A stretch of DNA of 44,281 nt, taken from contig SEAL01000020.1 in NCBI GenBank assembly GCA_004145215.1, positions 1 to 44,281 on the forward strand, read 5' to 3'. This DNA comes from Chloroflexota bacterium (lineage in GTDB: Bacteria; Patescibacteriota; Saccharimonadia; Saccharimonadales; Saccharimonadaceae). Under the pieces are notes generated by a model. It ran no database searches. It was not told the origin of the DNA and saw only the letters and a program-made list of their open reading frames with translations. This document shows, in pieces, positions 7,494-36,022 of this stretch. The stretch's first letter is position 1. The number at the start of each line of letters is the position of its first letter. The position numbers were made by a program, and so were the translations under genes.

Positions 7494-7649
7494 AAAAATA
7501 TGCCCAGATTTGACGGGCTTCCTTTAATAGTACTTTAACAGATTGATGGGGGTTTTTCAAACATAAGCTATGAGATAGCGCGACCCACCACTTCAAATTT
7601 ACTAAAGCAAATTTCGTGGAGAACCAAAGTAATCTTTACGGCGAATACC

Positions 7650-7686
7650 AAATAAAAACGAGATCCGTAGAGATCTCGATTTTATT
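7650..7686 (-). terminator. Intrinsic terminator immediately 3' of tRNA-Leu
   Basis: CGAGATC / GATCTCG stem extended by flanking A/T runs. On the minus strand the hairpin is followed by UUUUUAUUU. Confidence 0.6.
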
Positions 7687-7773
7687 TGGTGCGCGAAAGA
7701 GGACTTGAACCTCCACGCCCCGAAGGGCACCAGCCCCTCAAGCTGACGCGTCTACCAATTCCGCCATTCGCGC
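7687..7773 (-). tRNA. tRNA-Leu (anticodon GAG), class II with long variable arm, CCA encoded
   Basis: Reverse complement: GCGCGAATGGCGGAATTGGTAGACGCGTCAGCTTGAGGGGCTGGTGCCCTTCGGGGCGTGGAGGTTCAAGTCCTCTTTCGCGCACCA. It folds with a 7-bp acceptor stem, a TCAGC/GCTGG anticodon stem, loop TTGAGGG, T-arm GGAGG-TTCAAGT-CCTCT, and a 15-nt variable arm. Confidence 0.9.
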
Positions 7774-7827
7774 ATGTTGTCATATCATAGGTTCCTATGA
7801 TGAGGAGCTTGGTCAATTATATCGGTA

Positions 7828-27410: not shown

Positions 27411-28847
27411 CTAATCCATCGTATCTTGATTACTCGTGTCGATTGGTGCAATCGACTCCAACCACAACTGCAGTTCTTGTAGTACGAATTGTTTATTATC
27501 ATCCATTTCCGAACCGGCAAGTTTTTGTAAAGACGTCATAAACGCTGGTAATTGGCCCCGAATGCGATCGGTGCGCCACTGCTCCCATTCAAGTGATTCG
27601 GACTGCGAGAGTGTTTTCGGAAAATTGCGCGCTTTGTAATGCAGGAGTAATGGCGCTAACCGCTCATCAGAAAATTGCGGTGTAAAATCAGCGAGTTCGC
27701 GTTCGGTTGCGTTTCGAACAGTTTCGATGCGCAATTTGTCTCGGTCGCCAACGAATCCATCATACAGCTGCGCTTCCGGTTGCGTACTTTTAGCGAATTC
27801 CGGACGAGATTCAACTACAGATCGAATGTTTTCTGCAAAATGTGGCGATGCCAGTAGGATGTTTCGATGTGATTCAATTGTTTGCGGATCGAGTAACAGT
27901 CGTTTCCAGCCATCAGCTTGTTCCAGTACGCCTAACGGTGCTACGGCTGGTGCGCGGTTGAACTGCAGTTCTTTGACGGGGACTTTGACAAATCCTTCTT
28001 TGCTTCGCTCTTCCCAAGTAGCAAATAATTTTTTCTTTAATTCATCCTGCGACAAATTAATTAGCGGAGTCGGGTCGTATCGTAGATCATAGACGACAAC
28101 GTTGCCATTTCGTCCACTCGTCAGTGGAAATGCGACGGTCGTTTTATCATGTTCAGCATCGTAGCGACCGCTAGTATAAACAAATGGTTTCTTGTCATCC
28201 AAACTAACCAGTTTCTGAACCTCTTTTTTGCTGCGCATCTTTAGTAGGTAATCATACAACTGCGGCTGTTTTTGCTTGATTAATTTCGTGACAGCAATCA
28301 GCGCTTCAACATCGCTGAGCGCGTCGTGCGCTTTAAAATGATCGATGTCATTTTGTTTCGTCAATAATTCTAGTCGATTACTGGCTTTGCCATCAATAAC
28401 TGGCCAGACGATGCCATCCGGACGTAGCGCTCGCGTCATACGAACGACATCTAGCAAATCCCAGCGACTGGTGCCGTTTTTCCAGCACCATTCGTATGGA
28501 TCGTAAAATGTTCGCCAGAATAGATGTCGCACAAATTCATCGTCGAACCGCACGTTGTTGAACCCAACGGCAATCGTATCGTCGATAAAAATTTCTTCAC
28601 ATAATAATTTTGCAAACTGTGCTTCGGTATACCCATCAGTTACTGTTTGCTGTGGAGTGATACCGGTCACCATCAACGCCTCGGGGCTCGGTAACGTATC
28701 ATCGTTGAGCGCCACTAGCACATTATATGGTTCGCCGATCGGATTTAAATCCATATCCGTGCGAATGCCAGCAAATTGCATGATGCGATCGTCCCGTGCG
28801 CTCAGGCCGCTGGTCTCTAGGTCATAAAAAAAGAATGTCTGTGCCAT
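27411..28847 (-). CDS. sbcB: Exodeoxyribonuclease I
   Basis: 478 aa. The DEDDh exonuclease N-terminus FFFYDLETSGL...IMQFAGIRTD, the HDALSDVEA motif and the length all match ExoI. Confidence 0.9.
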   Translation of the reverse strand: MAQTFFFYDLETSGLSARDDRIMQFAGIRTDMDLNPIGEPYNVLVALNDDTLPSPEALMVTGITPQQTVTDGYTEAQFAKLLCEEIFIDDTIAVGFNNVRFDDEFVRHLFWRTFYDPYEWCWKNGTSRWDLLDVVRMTRALRPDGIVWPVIDGKASNRLELLTKQNDIDHFKAHDALSDVEALIAVTKLIKQKQPQLYDYLLKMRSKKEVQKLVSLDDKKPFVYTSGRYDAEHDKTTVAFPLTSGRNGNVVVYDLRYDPTPLINLSQDELKKKLFATWEERSKEGFVKVPVKELQFNRAPAVAPLGVLEQADGWKRLLLDPQTIESHRNILLASPHFAENIRSVVESRPEFAKSTQPEAQLYDGFVGDRDKLRIETVRNATERELADFTPQFSDERLAPLLLHYKARNFPKTLSQSESLEWEQWRTDRIRGQLPAFMTSLQKLAGSEMDDNKQFVLQELQLWLESIAPIDTSNQDTMD

Positions 28848-28861
28848 TACCTCTATAATAC

Positions 28862-29587
28862 AAAAAATCCCGCTAGATAGCGAGTCGAGGCAAGTTTAGA
28901 TGCTGTATGACAGCTAGATACGTCACCCGAAGGTGGGAGCGGAAAGGCTATGTTGCCTGTCGACCGCTCCCACCCGGAAGATGAGGGTGGATAGGCTCGG
29001 TAGCCAATCTTCCTCCCTCATCTGGGCGTGTTACTGCACCACCGGTTTCAGGTTGCTTGACAGATGAATGTGTTCGCTGCCGATGAGCGATGAGCATTCA
29101 GTCCCTGCTGCCGGGCGGTAAAGCTATTGAGTTGTTCTTCTGGTAGTACTCCGGGGCGGATCACAAAGTATGTAATCGCATCAGATACATCCTTCCAACA
29201 TGTTGGCTTTTCAGACAGAATCGATGGACTGGCACTGCGAGTTTTGCAGTGCTAGGTGAAACCACGAACATGAATCATACTCAAGTCCCTTCAGTCGAAG
29301 CGAGTAGCTCGCCGGCGATGATCAGGAGGTGGCGACGCGGTCCGGGGGGACGCTGACGTCGACGCCCGCGATGTCCGAGGAGTTCACGTGAAGCTCGTGG
29401 TTGCCGCAGTGTTTCATGCTTTTCTTCATGATGCCTCTTTCGTCGGACCGACCTGAAGTAACAGAATTGTCACTACAGGTTACCAGCTATTCGTCGAATA
29501 ACCACTAACCTATAGTGAACAATATATACGTATCTAGCTTGTCAAAGTACCAAGCAGACGCGGGAATAATTCACCGGATCTGATGAT
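28862..29587 (-). other. Unassigned GC-rich, ORF-poor, hairpin-dense transcribed-looking region (candidate structured RNA / sORF locus)
   Basis: No ORF of 60 aa or more in any frame. Promoter at 29594-29622. Multiple stems of 7-11 bp. U6 tract at the 3' end in minus orientation. Details are in the findings; the strand assignment is tentative. Confidence 0.35.
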
Positions 29588-29593
29588 ATAAAG

Positions 29594-29622
29594 ATAATAA
29601 CACACATTAACATAATAGTCAA
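29594..29622 (-). promoter_or_regulatory. Near-consensus sigma70-like promoter reading into the GC-rich locus
   Basis: Minus strand: TTGACT (29622-29617), 17 nt, TATTAT (29599-29594). It sits just downstream of the pilin-operon stop codon. Confidence 0.5.
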
Positions 29623-29640
29623 TACTATTTTATAAACGCT

Positions 29641-31047
29641 TTAAAATAACTGTCGATAGCTCAGGACAGTAAAATTAGCCGCCATCGTCACAGTCGCGGG
29701 CGGTATATCCATCCAGGAATTAGCGCCATAATCATACCCACTGATGTCGACATAATTACCCAATACAGCCCCCATCTTTGCGTTAACCGACCTGGGGCCA
29801 TTCAGATGTGCTTGTCCAAAATATGCCCACAAAACCGCGCCGTCACCGGTGCAAAAAACACAGTTGATCGCAAGTGTGTTTACAGAGTTTTGCAGCTCTT
29901 GGCCGGATATGACAGAGCAGGTAGGACTAATGCTGCAGCTATTGTTAATCGATTTGAAACTAATAATACGAACAGATACGCCGCTACTATTGGCTTTTAT
30001 CAAGCCGCCTAAGTCAACCGCCCCGTTAACAACTATCGTAGGTGGTGCCGTTAATCCATTTTTTACCGTTAAAGTCGCACTATAATCTAATTTGAAATCA
30101 CCCTCGACATATACGTCACCCTCTATAATGCTATTACAATAAAAATCGATAGTTACATTTTGTGAATATTTCGTACGATCTTTGAGCGTCGTTGGCCCCG
30201 GTGGAAGAGGGCTTGCTCCACAGCTGTCCGACAAGCCTGTACGACTGTTCGTCATAGAGGTTGTGTAGCCAGCTTTATCGAACTGCGGCATTGACATCGG
30301 CTGTGCCGTACACGGATTAATAAAGCCGCTAGATGGTACGACACCAGTACCGCTCGTTTGATTCGTGGCGCATAACGTACCGTTAATACGTGTGTTATAG
30401 CCCATCGTTATTGGCTGCTCATTGCTCGGACATTGCGATGGATAATTTCCGTTCACCATACAGGCAATGCCACCGACCTGCAGATTCACTGGCAGTGATG
30501 CCGTACCAATTGTCGCATAGTTTTCTAAACGTAATTTACCCATGACGTAAACATTGCCACTCGGCCCTCTGGACGCAGTCATAAATATCCCTCCAGGACC
30601 TGCGAATACACTTGGACTAATTTCTATTTGCTTTGAGCTGACGACAACTTCGATACTTTTTTTATTCGTAGCTGTTGCAGCTGTTCCCGAGCCCGTTGCG
30701 TAGATATAGCCAGTCGAAACGATCGTCTTTGTCAGATCAGAATTTGTCGTCACTGTCGTTCCGTATTCAGCTTTACCTTGAGATGTATTATTATAAAACT
30801 CTTTCCGAGCACCATCCGTATCTGGGTATCCGGCAAAACTAGGGCTCATTCGTAGTTGTGCGATAGTGTCGCTAACCCCGGCCTCGGCAACCGATATAGC
30901 AGCATCGCCATAGCTACTTTTCTTTGTAGAGGCGTAGCTAGCACCAATTACTCCGGCAACACTCAACCCGATACCCGTTAATACCGAAATGATGATTATC
31001 GCTAAAATTATCACATAGCCAAACTGTTTTTTTCTAACACGAATCAT
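29641..31047 (-). CDS. Large PilX-like minor pilin / pilus-associated protein
   Basis: 468 aa. N-terminal hydrophobic helix FGYVIILAIIIISVLTGIGLSVAG (PilX_N style). 4-nt ATGA overlap with the upstream pilin gene. Its C-terminal half is paralogous to that of the 550-aa protein. Confidence 0.6.
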   Translation of the reverse strand: MIRVRKKQFGYVIILAIIIISVLTGIGLSVAGVIGASYASTKKSSYGDAAISVAEAGVSDTIAQLRMSPSFAGYPDTDGARKEFYNNTSQGKAEYGTTVTTNSDLTKTIVSTGYIYATGSGTAATATNKKSIEVVVSSKQIEISPSVFAGPGGIFMTASRGPSGNVYVMGKLRLENYATIGTASLPVNLQVGGIACMVNGNYPSQCPSNEQPITMGYNTRINGTLCATNQTSGTGVVPSSGFINPCTAQPMSMPQFDKAGYTTSMTNSRTGLSDSCGASPLPPGPTTLKDRTKYSQNVTIDFYCNSIIEGDVYVEGDFKLDYSATLTVKNGLTAPPTIVVNGAVDLGGLIKANSSGVSVRIISFKSINNSCSISPTCSVISGQELQNSVNTLAINCVFCTGDGAVLWAYFGQAHLNGPRSVNAKMGAVLGNYVDISGYDYGANSWMDIPPATVTMAANFTVLSYRQLF

Positions 31048-31968: not shown

Positions 31969-33621
31969 TTACTGATCGAACCATACATATGGCTTTAAAT
32001 TAACGATCGTCCCGTAACCAAAGGATAACTTTTGAGCGGCAACCGTTCCATTAACAGTAACGCTAATTCCCGTAAGTATCCGCCCGAAATACGCATAGTA
32101 CGATCCATCATAGACTGAACCCGTTCCGGAAAGCGAGATTGCTGTCTGTACATTGAAGAAAGGATTCGCCGCATCGTATATTGTTTTGGGATCCTGTGTA
32201 ATATACGCGTCATCTGCGGATTTCGCTGAATCTAATGAATAAAAACTGACAAAGATTGGCGTTATTGATGTCGTTGTTTCAACTCTCATATTAGTGAAAT
32301 TTATCCGTCCATTCACAACAACGATAGGTCTCTTTGTTAGCGTTGGATCGACAGTCAAGATCGTAGTACCGGGAGCGCTATCCCCTAAAACGAAGTCGCC
32401 AGTAATGTATAGATCGCCGCGCAGATTCACCGTCTTTGCGCCCGTCGCTAATACGTTACCGGTAAACTTTGTTAAAGCAGGAAGCTCCATGCTCGCACAA
32501 CTGGATTGACAGGTTCTACCAGGTACAACGCTCGTCATCCTCGCTGCGTGCCCGGCTTTGTCGAAAAGTGGCTGATTATTTATTTTTGGAGTGCAGGGAA
32601 CTTCGAGGCCGTAAATGCGCGCACCGAATGAACCTGTATACGTAGATGACACTTGATCCCTCGCGCAAACCCGACTTGCTCGAATCTCAGAGCCTGATGG
32701 CCCGGACCCATTGAGTGCGATTGGCTCGCTAGGCGAGCAGGATGTACCATAAGATGCGTTTGTTCCGCAGCCATTGTTAAGTATATCTATTTTACCAATC
32801 GGCGCTGACGTCGTCCCAATTATGTCACCCTGCCCCAGCGTTAATCCGCCGGCAGAAAACAAATTAGTACCAGGGCCGCCATTTACGCGGGTGTTCCCTG
32901 CAAAATCAAGCCCACCAAAACCCGATGTCATTTGAGCATTATTTGAAAACTTTAATATAATCCGCGGAGTCATCATTGAATCGTCCGTCATGTTAATCTG
33001 TTGACCAGATTGAGTCCTTTCAAACGATAACGTCGTCTTTACAGATCCAGCCAAAATAGGATCCATCGTTGTCGTACCTGTTTTTGTATAATATGTAAAA
33101 GAAAGTCCGGCTGTATTATTGGCAATTAGTATATCTGAGGGACAACCGCCACTCGCCGTTGCAGGACATGTCAATGTTGTTATCGCATTTTCGCTATCGG
33201 GATACGCAATAGTGCGTTTATAGATGTTGCTGTCTTTCCGGTAATAGACAATAGTATCATATGCGCGGGCAGCACTATCGTATGTACCTCCATCAGCTTT
33301 TAGCGCAGGTTGTGCAATGACGAGAGTAGACGCACTGCTCGCCCACTCCCCTGACGCGGACGGCGCACTTGGATCGGGTGTGGAGTTATTTGACATCACC
33401 CCATACGATCGGCGGACATCATCGTTGATACGACCTAATGTTGTCTGAATCGTATTTGTTAGCTGACTTCTTGTTTGTGCTATCGCTGATTGACCGAGCG
33501 ATGTCACCATAAAACCAATAAGAGCAATGCTAAGTATTGTCGTCAGTGCCATCGCAACAACAAGTTCGACGATAGTATAACCCGCATTGCCCGTTGTCAC
33601 CCATAAATGTTTGTGTTTCAT
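31969..33621 (-). CDS. Large prepilin-type N-terminal domain protein (giant minor pilin / tip-protein candidate)
   Basis: 550 aa. MKHKHLWVTTGNAG|YTIVELVVAMALTTILSIALIGF is a class III signal peptide, followed by a long Ser/Thr/Gly-rich beta-type body. Confidence 0.7.
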   Translation of the reverse strand: MKHKHLWVTTGNAGYTIVELVVAMALTTILSIALIGFMVTSLGQSAIAQTRSQLTNTIQTTLGRINDDVRRSYGVMSNNSTPDPSAPSASGEWASSASTLVIAQPALKADGGTYDSAARAYDTIVYYRKDSNIYKRTIAYPDSENAITTLTCPATASGGCPSDILIANNTAGLSFTYYTKTGTTTMDPILAGSVKTTLSFERTQSGQQINMTDDSMMTPRIILKFSNNAQMTSGFGGLDFAGNTRVNGGPGTNLFSAGGLTLGQGDIIGTTSAPIGKIDILNNGCGTNASYGTSCSPSEPIALNGSGPSGSEIRASRVCARDQVSSTYTGSFGARIYGLEVPCTPKINNQPLFDKAGHAARMTSVVPGRTCQSSCASMELPALTKFTGNVLATGAKTVNLRGDLYITGDFVLGDSAPGTTILTVDPTLTKRPIVVVNGRINFTNMRVETTTSITPIFVSFYSLDSAKSADDAYITQDPKTIYDAANPFFNVQTAISLSGTGSVYDGSYYAYFGRILTGISVTVNGTVAAQKLSFGYGTIVNLKPYVWFDQ

Positions 33622-33673: not shown

Positions 33674-35752
<2,079 letters not shown>

Positions 35753-36022
35753 ATTGTTCTGATTACGAATTATCGTTCTCCTGCCGCCTGCATTACTACA
35801 AGGGCGCTACCTTACTTTGTCTTTCTTCTCTCTATCTCGCAAATAGACATAGGGAACGGGGTACGTGTCGACCGAATTCATTATTTAGTATTTTTTTGAA
35901 AATGTTCATTTCGGTACCCGTGCGACATTTGTCGGTAGGCTCATTTGCTGCTCATTCTTCCCACTCGCATGTATGCCGTTTCCGCCATACCCGTAGTTGA
36001 ACTCACAAATGTGCTATGACTC

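Follow-up and report, generated by a model that had tools for sequence, protein, structure and literature searches.

A candidate gene for a large clamped RNA carrying small open reading frames, next to sbcB in Candidatus Saccharibacteria

We asked what is encoded at positions 28848-29640 of the window, by which we mean the whole 44,281-nt stretch of contig SEAL01000020.1 analyzed here. This 793-nt interval is, as a first-pass annotation of the sequence had stated, the longest run in the window without an open reading frame (ORF) of at least 60 aa, the window edge excepted. It lies between sbcB (27411-28847, minus strand; Pfam domains RNase_T and Exonuc_X-T_C) and a 468-aa gene closing a pilin-like cluster that was identified through N_methyl motifs (Pfam), and the best relatives of the sbcB product (70-94% aa identity) all come from metagenome-assembled genomes of Candidatus Saccharibacteria (TM7). 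The annotation's hand count of 269 G+C in 480 nt (56.0%) for 28921-29400 proved exact and is the highest of all 480-nt segments (mean 46.3%, sd 3.0), while the adjacent 29461-29640 is AT-rich, as was also claimed (34% GC). The minimum free energy (MFE) of 28848-29640 gave z-scores of -6.4 (minus strand) and -4.3 (plus strand), and none of 20 dinucleotide shuffles (0/20) folded equally well.

We find it very likely that the minus strand encodes a conserved family of structured RNAs. On balance we favor the reading that 28862-29622, read on the minus strand, forms a gene complete in itself whose product is a highly structured RNA of ~725 nt, belonging to an undescribed family limited to one clade within Candidatus Saccharibacteria, and with good confidence we regard this RNA as an independent transcript and not as a leader of sbcB. 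The annotation's proposal of a novel structured RNA therefore survives in that the element is bounded by a promoter and a terminator on the minus strand, is absent from Rfam and covaries in relatives; what does not survive is the notion of a simply non-coding RNA, owing to a small ORF described below (sORF1). The boundaries and the frame of the unit consist of the following features.

29622-29594, minus strand: sigma-70-type promoter from the promoter scan, with -35 TTGACT (29622-29617), a 17-nt spacer and an extended -10 TGTTATTAT (TATTAT with an upstream TG).
29587-29549, minus strand: P1, an irregular hairpin right at the RNA's 5' terminus, with a GGUGA motif resembling a Shine-Dalgarno (SD) sequence in its apical part.
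29544-29528, minus strand: 5' arm of P2 (the "box", UGACAAGCUAGAUACGU), whose partner at 28923-28908 lies ~620 nt downstream.
29523-29466, minus strand: P3, a long near-perfect hairpin (core 29519-29471, ~24 bp) nested immediately within P2, with the TATTCG-T-CGAATA dyad at its tip.
28923-28908, minus strand: 3' arm of P2 (ACGUAUCUAGCUGUCA), pairing with the box.
28884-28862, minus strand: intrinsic terminator from the terminator scan, hairpin CUCGCUAUCUAGCGGG followed by U6, at the unit's end.

Both the promoter and the terminator had been named by the annotation and were recovered independently by scan. Among loci from Saccharibacteria relatives (given L-numbers; 80 syntenic loci were compared), the promoter is kept as TTGACA-17-TAnAAT in L003, L082 and all other units, and the terminator is conserved in L003, L082 and L095, with analogous terminators in all units. 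From the promoter position we infer a transcription start near 29587.

Structural evidence comes from the long-range helix P2, hereafter the clamp, which emerges without constraint in the MFE fold of the whole region. When 18 units were aligned on anchors, 77.8% of cells were paired (29-42% with the partner slid), 16 of the 18 pairs showed changes on both sides and none of 500 shuffles (0/500) matched the observed values. L027, L005 and L095, units that had been held out, have the pairing too. Every unit has an equivalent of P2, differing in sequence and always just 5' of the terminator, and even the tandem units of one genome (L007 c1 and c2) each form it with sequences of their own. Across the family the clamp measures 15-21 bp and its arms lie 240-750 nt apart; an ungapped search for the P2 partner puts bulged units out of register. 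The box itself is semi-conserved in relatives (CAUUGACAAGYUGGAUA).

P3 behaved similarly. In a family alignment of 19 units (A4), 89% of the cells in its 22 pairs were paired and 21 of these pairs carried compensatory changes, with 52 G.U/U.G cells vs 17 A.C/C.A cells; this G.U excess argues that the helix is selected as minus-strand RNA and not as a DNA palindrome. P3 is 100% identical between the window and L082, the closest relative. The 6-1-6 dyad highlighted by the annotation is real, yet it is the tip of this 24-bp helix, and the structure that defines the family is the AT-rich 5' part together with the clamp, which the annotation had missed. P1 appears in the MFE fold and in the window/L082 consensus fold, with one compensatory change (G-C to A-U); in A4, 65% of the cells in its 10 pairs were paired and 9 of the 10 pairs had both-side changes, so that P1 appears more weakly supported than P2 or P3. 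Covariation in relatives, the check that the annotation had suggested, was thus found for P2, P3 and P1.

How widely is the unit distributed, and what is conserved in it? A first blastn comparison with the syntenic loci matched only the region's two ends, in L003, L007 and L020, so the GC-rich middle at first looked like an insertion. When read by sequence, most close relatives turned out to carry a unit in the same place, with the same architecture and a different interior. From 5' to 3' the order is a TTGACA-17-TAnAAT promoter, a 5' hairpin, the box, a hairpin of 20-25 bp, the interior, a GC hairpin and the terminator, which stands immediately before sbcB; the interior in these relatives is GC-rich and structured and carries SD-preceded small ORFs. 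L082 (sbcB 94% aa identity) is homologous along the whole unit. Identity between the window and L082 at 4-fold degenerate sites was 42% in sbcB and 24.5% in the 468-aa gene (saturated), while in the RNA it runs at 88-100% over the first 150 nt, 92% over the last 105 nt and 30-74% in the interior. Conserved ends amid saturated neutral sites argue for strong purifying selection on both, and these ends are better conserved than the first codon positions of sbcB.

A covariance model of the 5' domain (R1; E <1e-5) detected 23 sense-strand units, 4 of them outside the seed alignment (L027, L005, L093 and L095), scoring ~100 bits in sense and ~25-33 bits in antisense. The window holds one copy (117.2 bits, E = 7e-24), and it shows promoter, P1, box/P2 clamp, P3 and terminator in the order that defines the family. 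R1 found no unit near sbcB in oral Nanosynbacter genomes. When metagenomes were scanned at large with a 21-nt box pattern, four of the matches were real units and two arose by chance; the box pattern in IMG/VR gave one chance match, inside a coding sequence.

Several loci carry two or three units in tandem (L007 4240-5950, L020 4550-5950, L089 1830-3230), each with its own promoter, clamp and terminator and with wholly different interiors and cargo. The second L007 unit (c2) encodes a Gly-rich hydrophobic 39-mer, and the first L020 unit (c1) a 113-aa protein with an apparent N-terminal signal peptide. Upstream of sbcB in L010 (234-386, minus strand), the complement of a box (TATCCAACTTGTCATAA) is followed by a terminator at the contig end, probably the 3' end of a unit truncated by the assembly.

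Searches of reference libraries gave the family no name. With Rfam 15, only lysM-TM7 (35778-35940) and one tRNA reached the gathering threshold in the whole window; a scan of 28700-29750 at E<=10 returned hairpin-level chance matches only (14-19 bits vs cut-offs of 38-126), and ten related loci yielded lysM-TM7 alone. The classes covered include RNase P, tmRNA, SRP, 6S, riboswitches, OLE, GOLLD, ROOL and HEARO, and the annotation's failure to recognize a known RNA core in the region is thereby borne out. ARAGORN found no tmRNA in the window, only tRNA-Leu at 7687-7773. The region had no blastn match in E. coli genomes, in plasmids or in phages, and none of its stop-free translations matched Pfam. 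Together, these Rfam, ARAGORN, blastn and Pfam results do not support a decayed gene or a library-known RNA. A literature search on small RNAs of Saccharibacteria or CPR (Candidate Phyla Radiation) bacteria turned up nothing relevant. Among individual candidates, 6S RNA was rejected for its wrong size and branching and the lack of an Rfam match, TIGR arrays for the lack of short repeats and of a Tas gene, and integron attC sites for the lack of an integrase; a role for P3 as an anti-phage guide was rejected as its arms were unmatched in the window or in IMG/VR.

Between the conserved ends lies an interior of small ORFs and GC-rich hairpins, with the following features.

29473-29458, minus strand: small hairpin GUGACA-AUUC-UGUUAC, read from the sequence, which shares bases of the P3 foot and excludes the basal pairs of P3.
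29441-29322, minus strand: SD GAAAGAGG (29441-29434), 4 nt before the start of sORF1 (29429-29322), 35 codons, peptide MKKSMKHCGNHELHVNSSDIAGVDVSVPPDRVATS.
29292-29252, minus strand: SD GAAGGGA and mini-ORF2, MIHVRGFT* (29278-29252), whose start codon lies in a small hairpin.
29252-29232, minus strand: hairpin GCACUGC-N7-GCAGUGC, directly 3' of the mini-ORF2 stop codon.
29100-29065, minus strand: two-tier hairpin, conserved in L082.
29023-28979, minus strand: strong hairpin of 9+ bp, perfect in the window, genome-specific and lacking a counterpart in L082.
28974-28924, minus strand: GC-rich hairpin of 11 bp (28974-28932), overlapped by a CACC-UUCG-GGUG element and standing immediately before the 3' arm of P2.

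The composition of sORF1 shows strong codon periodicity, with GC of 0.57/0.40/0.91 at codon positions 1/2/3, while the GC at third positions (GC3) of the window's genes is 0.45 +/- 0.04 and reaches at most 0.74 across 2288 windows of 35 codons. L082 has a homologue of 34 codons (MPPHCDGQDNFHECSSIVADADLPVFPDRVATSS) with about half the residues identical by eye and one 3-nt indel. In the near-identical strains L003 (5560-5700) and L095 (2150-2200), the sole large differences between the units are a 36-nt deletion and a 9-nt insertion, both within the sORF and both in frame, which points to strain-level variation in peptide length. GC3-rich first sORFs of 25-47 codons recur in nine units. Because of the GC3 periodicity, the SD, the L082 homologue, the in-frame indels and this recurrence, we consider sORF1 to be probably translated, and to be fast-evolving. 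The simplest explanation of its GC3 excess would be that third codon positions, being free to vary, are selected for the stability of the fold. The products are orphans: phmmer with the sORF1 peptide found 0 matches among 1.84 billion representative proteins, tblastn of the 35-aa peptide against plasmids found none, the L003 and L020 sORF peptides matched themselves and one 62% relative only, and Pfam and PADLOC gave no match to the cargo peptides.

The interior in this genome also has several SD-preceded mini-ORFs, mini-ORF2 among them, whose translation is less sure. The mini-ORF2 peptide is the same in L082 despite 5 nucleotide changes, and mini-ORFs in L009 and L008 also end in GFT, with different stop codons; we regard its translation as only suggested. 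Further mini-ORFs recur elsewhere in the family. One series ends in ...LA (MRVKRLPTLA, MRIKRELVLA, MREFRELTLA and MKREFMLA; L001 5330-5520, L083 3450-3490, L002 5490-5525) and places its UAG stop codon in the loop of a GCUGGC-AUAG-GCCAGC hairpin, and other units have mini-ORFs ending in KRR(L/P) or beginning with MRLxxY.

The GC-rich helices stressed by the annotation are all present and perfect, namely the 11-bp (28932-42/28964-74) and 9-bp (28979-87/29015-23) helices, the alternative 7-bp pairing, two hairpins (29065-29100 and 29232-52) and the CACC-UUCG-GGUG hairpin, as are the 29195-206 palindrome and the TATTCG-T-CGAATA dyad. Most of these helices are lineage-specific, however, as with the hairpin at 28979-29023. 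The proposed long-range 7-bp pair of GGTTTCA with TGAAACC fared worse, since TGAAACC stands at 29257-63 and not at 29248-54, and the pair is not conserved in L082. Among the helices with counterparts in L082, the 29252-29232 hairpin is kept with altered sequence (3 pairs changed on both sides), and its "mini-ORF, stop, hairpin" module recurs in other units. The 29206-29195 palindrome is kept with pairing-preserving changes. For the inner stem of the 29100-29065 hairpin, direct reading gives CGCU/AGCG in the window vs CGCC/GGCG in L082, while the window/L082 consensus fold counts just a one-sided change from U-A to U-G. The 28974-28924 block is 92% identical in L082, and other units have a strong GC hairpin at the equivalent position too. 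The hairpin at 29473-29458 is a possible switch element, and hairpins analogous to it overlap the P3 foot in L003 (there followed by U5), L020 and L007.

From this layout a mechanism can be sketched. P1 at the 5' end and the terminator at the 3' end would shield the RNA from exonucleases, and with the clamp these terminal hairpins would make it long-lived. The clamp would close the molecule and hold the sORFs in a closed fold, to be opened by processing or by ribosomes; the long perfect duplexes P2 and P3 resemble RNase III substrates, and the hairpin overlapping the P3 foot, with the hairpins that hold SD sequences and start codons, may gate translation. The RNA would then act like a clamp-gated mRNA for small peptides or like a dual-function RNA. 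We offer such gating or processing, drawn by analogy, as tentative.

Several observations weigh against parts of this account. The smallest units (L005, L008, L089 u2/u3; ~300 nt) have no sORF1, so the peptide cannot be the family's common function. The changes between the window and L082 in mini-ORF2 are also compensatory in its start-codon hairpin, which weakens an argument from synonymous-only change. The interior has no family-wide motif: no 8-mer of the unit interiors was common to more lineages than in shuffles. At P2 the count of G.U vs A.C cells (10 vs 6-7) does not discriminate between the strands, and clamp duplex energies are only moderately above those of shuffled or non-cognate-tail controls, because GC-rich tails give a strong background. 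Because the sequences compared are related and their alignments were anchored in part by hand, the covariation counts lean towards the proposed structure. The transcript ends are deduced from consensus motifs, and RNase III cleavage and translational gating are hypothetical steps. Since the smallest units lack sORF1 and no interior 8-mer is shared, the RNA frame is the family's common denominator and the interior a variable cargo.

We also weighed a large RNA that is purely non-coding, serving as a protein-binding scaffold or sponge or as a base-pairing regulator, with sORFs that are incidental or tolerated. The smallest members fit this idea, as does the restriction of family-wide conservation to the RNA helices and the box, and the hairpin explains the mini-ORF changes equally well. 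The GGUGA in the P1 loop, which has no start codon, resembles 5' stabilizer elements, of which the STAB-SD of cryIIIA is an example. What makes a purely non-coding RNA somewhat unlikely is sORF1, with its GC3 of 0.91, 3-nt periodicity and good SD, and with relatives that stay in frame through indels of 3, 9 and 36 nt.

A second alternative likens the unit to a type I toxin-antitoxin system, in which the mRNA of a toxic peptide is kept inert by 5'-3' fold-back, as in hok, and is activated by 3' processing. The clamp provides the long-range 5'-3' closing pair expected of a hok/sok-type RNA, the leader is long and structured, the ORF is small, the fold is conserved over sequence, tandem copies have diverged and L007 c2, alone among the related units, encodes a hydrophobic peptide, its 39-mer. 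The window's own peptide, however, is hydrophilic, with no hydrophobic stretch or transmembrane segment, PADLOC and Pfam found no match, and some units have no such ORF. As to an antisense partner, the promoter scan shows one weak plus-strand site (9/12 matches, 29570-29598) that points away from the unit, and neither the scan nor inspection by eye revealed a conserved antisense -10/-35 in the 5' domain. We judge a toxin-antitoxin system of this type distinctly unlikely.

The position of the unit suggests a third possibility, that it is a long attenuator leader in which read-through of the terminator sets the level of exonuclease I. The unit is on the strand of sbcB and lies upstream of it in most carriers, and its terminator ends 2 nt before the following element.

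28862-28845, minus strand: extended -10 of sbcB (TG-T-TATTAT, 28862-28855), ending 7 nt before the ATG at 28847 and lying outside the RNA.

In the window, the TG of this sbcB promoter follows directly upon the terminator's U-run. In 40 of 44 Saccharibacteria loci, including sbcB loci whose spacer is not SD-like, a TAnnnT hexamer, usually with TG before it, stops 6-8 nt short of the sbcB ATG, and this fixed position implies a leaderless sbcB mRNA; we infer that sbcB is leaderless with a promoter of its own. Given this apparent promoter, the RNA unit is not the sbcB 5' untranslated region, and what the annotation took for the ribosome-binding site of sbcB is more likely the spacer of its leaderless promoter. 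A leader or riboswitch would be contiguous with, and specific to, the regulated mRNA. Here the unit has its own terminator; in many relatives sbcB follows the preceding gene after 30-50 nt with no unit in between, and it stands without a unit in L004, L006, L013, L091, L092 and oral Nanosynbacter loci; in L087 the unit lies between obg and a TerC-like gene; and tandem units each have their own promoter and terminator. The long 5' leader suggested by the annotation is accordingly highly unlikely, and we keep to a separate RNA gene that is not tied to the expression of sbcB.

Could the clamp arms instead be inverted repeats that bound a DNA element, either an invertible segment or a mobile element resembling a MITE? 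Covarying inverted repeats of 15-21 bp around a variable segment would suit such an element, and the P2 wobble count gives no strand signal. Yet all ~25 units keep one orientation relative to promoter and terminator, P3 shows its sense-strand G.U excess, the window has no other copies and those in tandem have diverged greatly. Among the neighbors scanned (pilin-like genes, sbcB, a UvrA-like gene, Obg, CHAP and YceG), none was a recombinase, transposase or reverse transcriptase. The chance of a DNA element thus appears very remote. Of its specific forms, an inverton was rejected, with all assembled units in the same orientation and no recombinase among the genes scanned, and a retron msr-msd has the inverted repeats but no reverse transcriptase among those neighbors; retron arms are typically ~150-200 nt apart (here 240-750).

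A decayed gene or a horizontally acquired remnant of high-GC (actinobacterial) DNA, which would account for the local GC excess and the actinobacteria-like GC3 of sORF1, has next to no probability: blastn, tblastn, Pfam and phmmer gave no sign of it, the peptides of other units are orphans too, the unit is inherited vertically with its flanks, its ends are under strong purifying selection and a GC3-rich sORF recurs in many diverged units. A last and very improbable idea keeps the RNA gene but changes its purpose. Saccharibacteria live on Actinobacteria, and the frame might be a nuclease-resistant clamped chassis, a "cassette holder", for fast-diversifying cargo aimed at the actinobacterial host. 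If so, the GC3-rich, actinobacteria-like codons, alien to the genes of the epibiont itself, and the extreme stability features would agree with delivery of the RNA or its peptide to a high-GC host, where translation might take place. The units would then serve in an arms race as RNA-borne effectors, and this would account for tandem duplication and strain-level indels. As an account of the GC3 excess this is possible but unsupported, and the orphan sORF products of other units argue against capture of host genes.

Other features of the window were recorded alongside. The tRNA-Leu(GAG) at 7687-7773 (minus strand) lies within the second-largest internal ORF-free gap (7494-7827). Two pilin-like (N_methyl) genes are flanked by proteins of 468 aa (29641-31047, minus strand) and 550 aa (31969-33621, minus strand) in which Pfam finds nothing, and the 468-aa gene is fast-evolving (71% nucleotide identity to L082; 24.5% at 4-fold sites). 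A lysM-TM7 RNA (RF03005, 90 bits) at 35778-35940 (minus strand) precedes a CHAP-domain gene (35026-35511); the local order is YceG, lysM-TM7, CHAP, Obg, and the motif is found at the syntenic position in L008, L009, L011, L019 and L020.

Genomes of Saccharibacteria and other CPR bacteria measure ~1 Mb with very little non-coding DNA, and some Saccharibacteria are now genetically tractable. In such genomes, 0.3-2.2 kb beside the pilin/sbcB or obg loci is devoted to one to three copies of this RNA gene. For the model strain TM7x, a published paper reports no validated small RNA. The analysis yields a new family of large structured RNA in a CPR phylum, with a covariance model ready for use, a set of orphan, fast-evolving micro-proteins, and an architecture that can be tested, made up of the clamp, the long duplexes and the SD-preceded mini-ORF modules. 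A further lesson is that a "GC-rich ORF-free region" need not be a classical non-coding RNA but can combine coding with structure.

Which known systems does this RNA resemble? Long near-perfect duplexes formed by arms hundreds of nucleotides apart also serve as RNase III processing stalks in rRNA precursors and phage T7 early mRNAs. As there, the duplexes bracket a functional RNA and hairpins would remain at the new ends after cleavage; unlike there, the bracketed RNA is neither rRNA nor an ordinary gene set, and cleavage here is only predicted. With OLE, GOLLD, ROOL and raiA the family shares a length of several hundred nucleotides, a GC content above that of the genome, support from covariation and a narrow distribution. 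Their Rfam models are unmatched, however, and their cores are conserved; in the present family conservation is confined to the frame, around an interior that is lineage-specific and in part coding.

RNAIII of Staphylococcus aureus, a dual-function RNA of 514 nt that encodes the 26-aa delta-haemolysin, is likewise a large multi-hairpin RNA with long-range helices, a short peptide, its own promoter and terminator, and an architecture kept over sequence. The window's RNA differs in having no known target-pairing motifs and no link to a quorum-sensing locus, in a far more variable interior and in its tandem units. Two type I toxin mRNAs come to mind as well: hok, whose fold-back element fbi was reportedly studied by the Gerdes laboratory, and AapA1, said to have been treated by Arnion and colleagues in 2017. 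Like these, the window's unit combines a strong promoter, a long structured 5' region, a small ORF and a covarying 5'-3' closing helix, with weak sequence but strong fold conservation and diverged tandem copies. It differs in that its peptide is hydrophilic, no antisense RNA gene was detected and some members have no ORF, and in that the RNA is about twice as long and has extra SD-preceded mini-ORF modules; the hydrophilic peptide speaks against membership in the toxin family, as may the lack of a detected antisense gene. By analogy, the closest working models for this RNA would be the type I toxin mRNAs that fold-back keeps inhibited (hok and AapA1), together with dual-function RNAs, of which RNAIII is an example.

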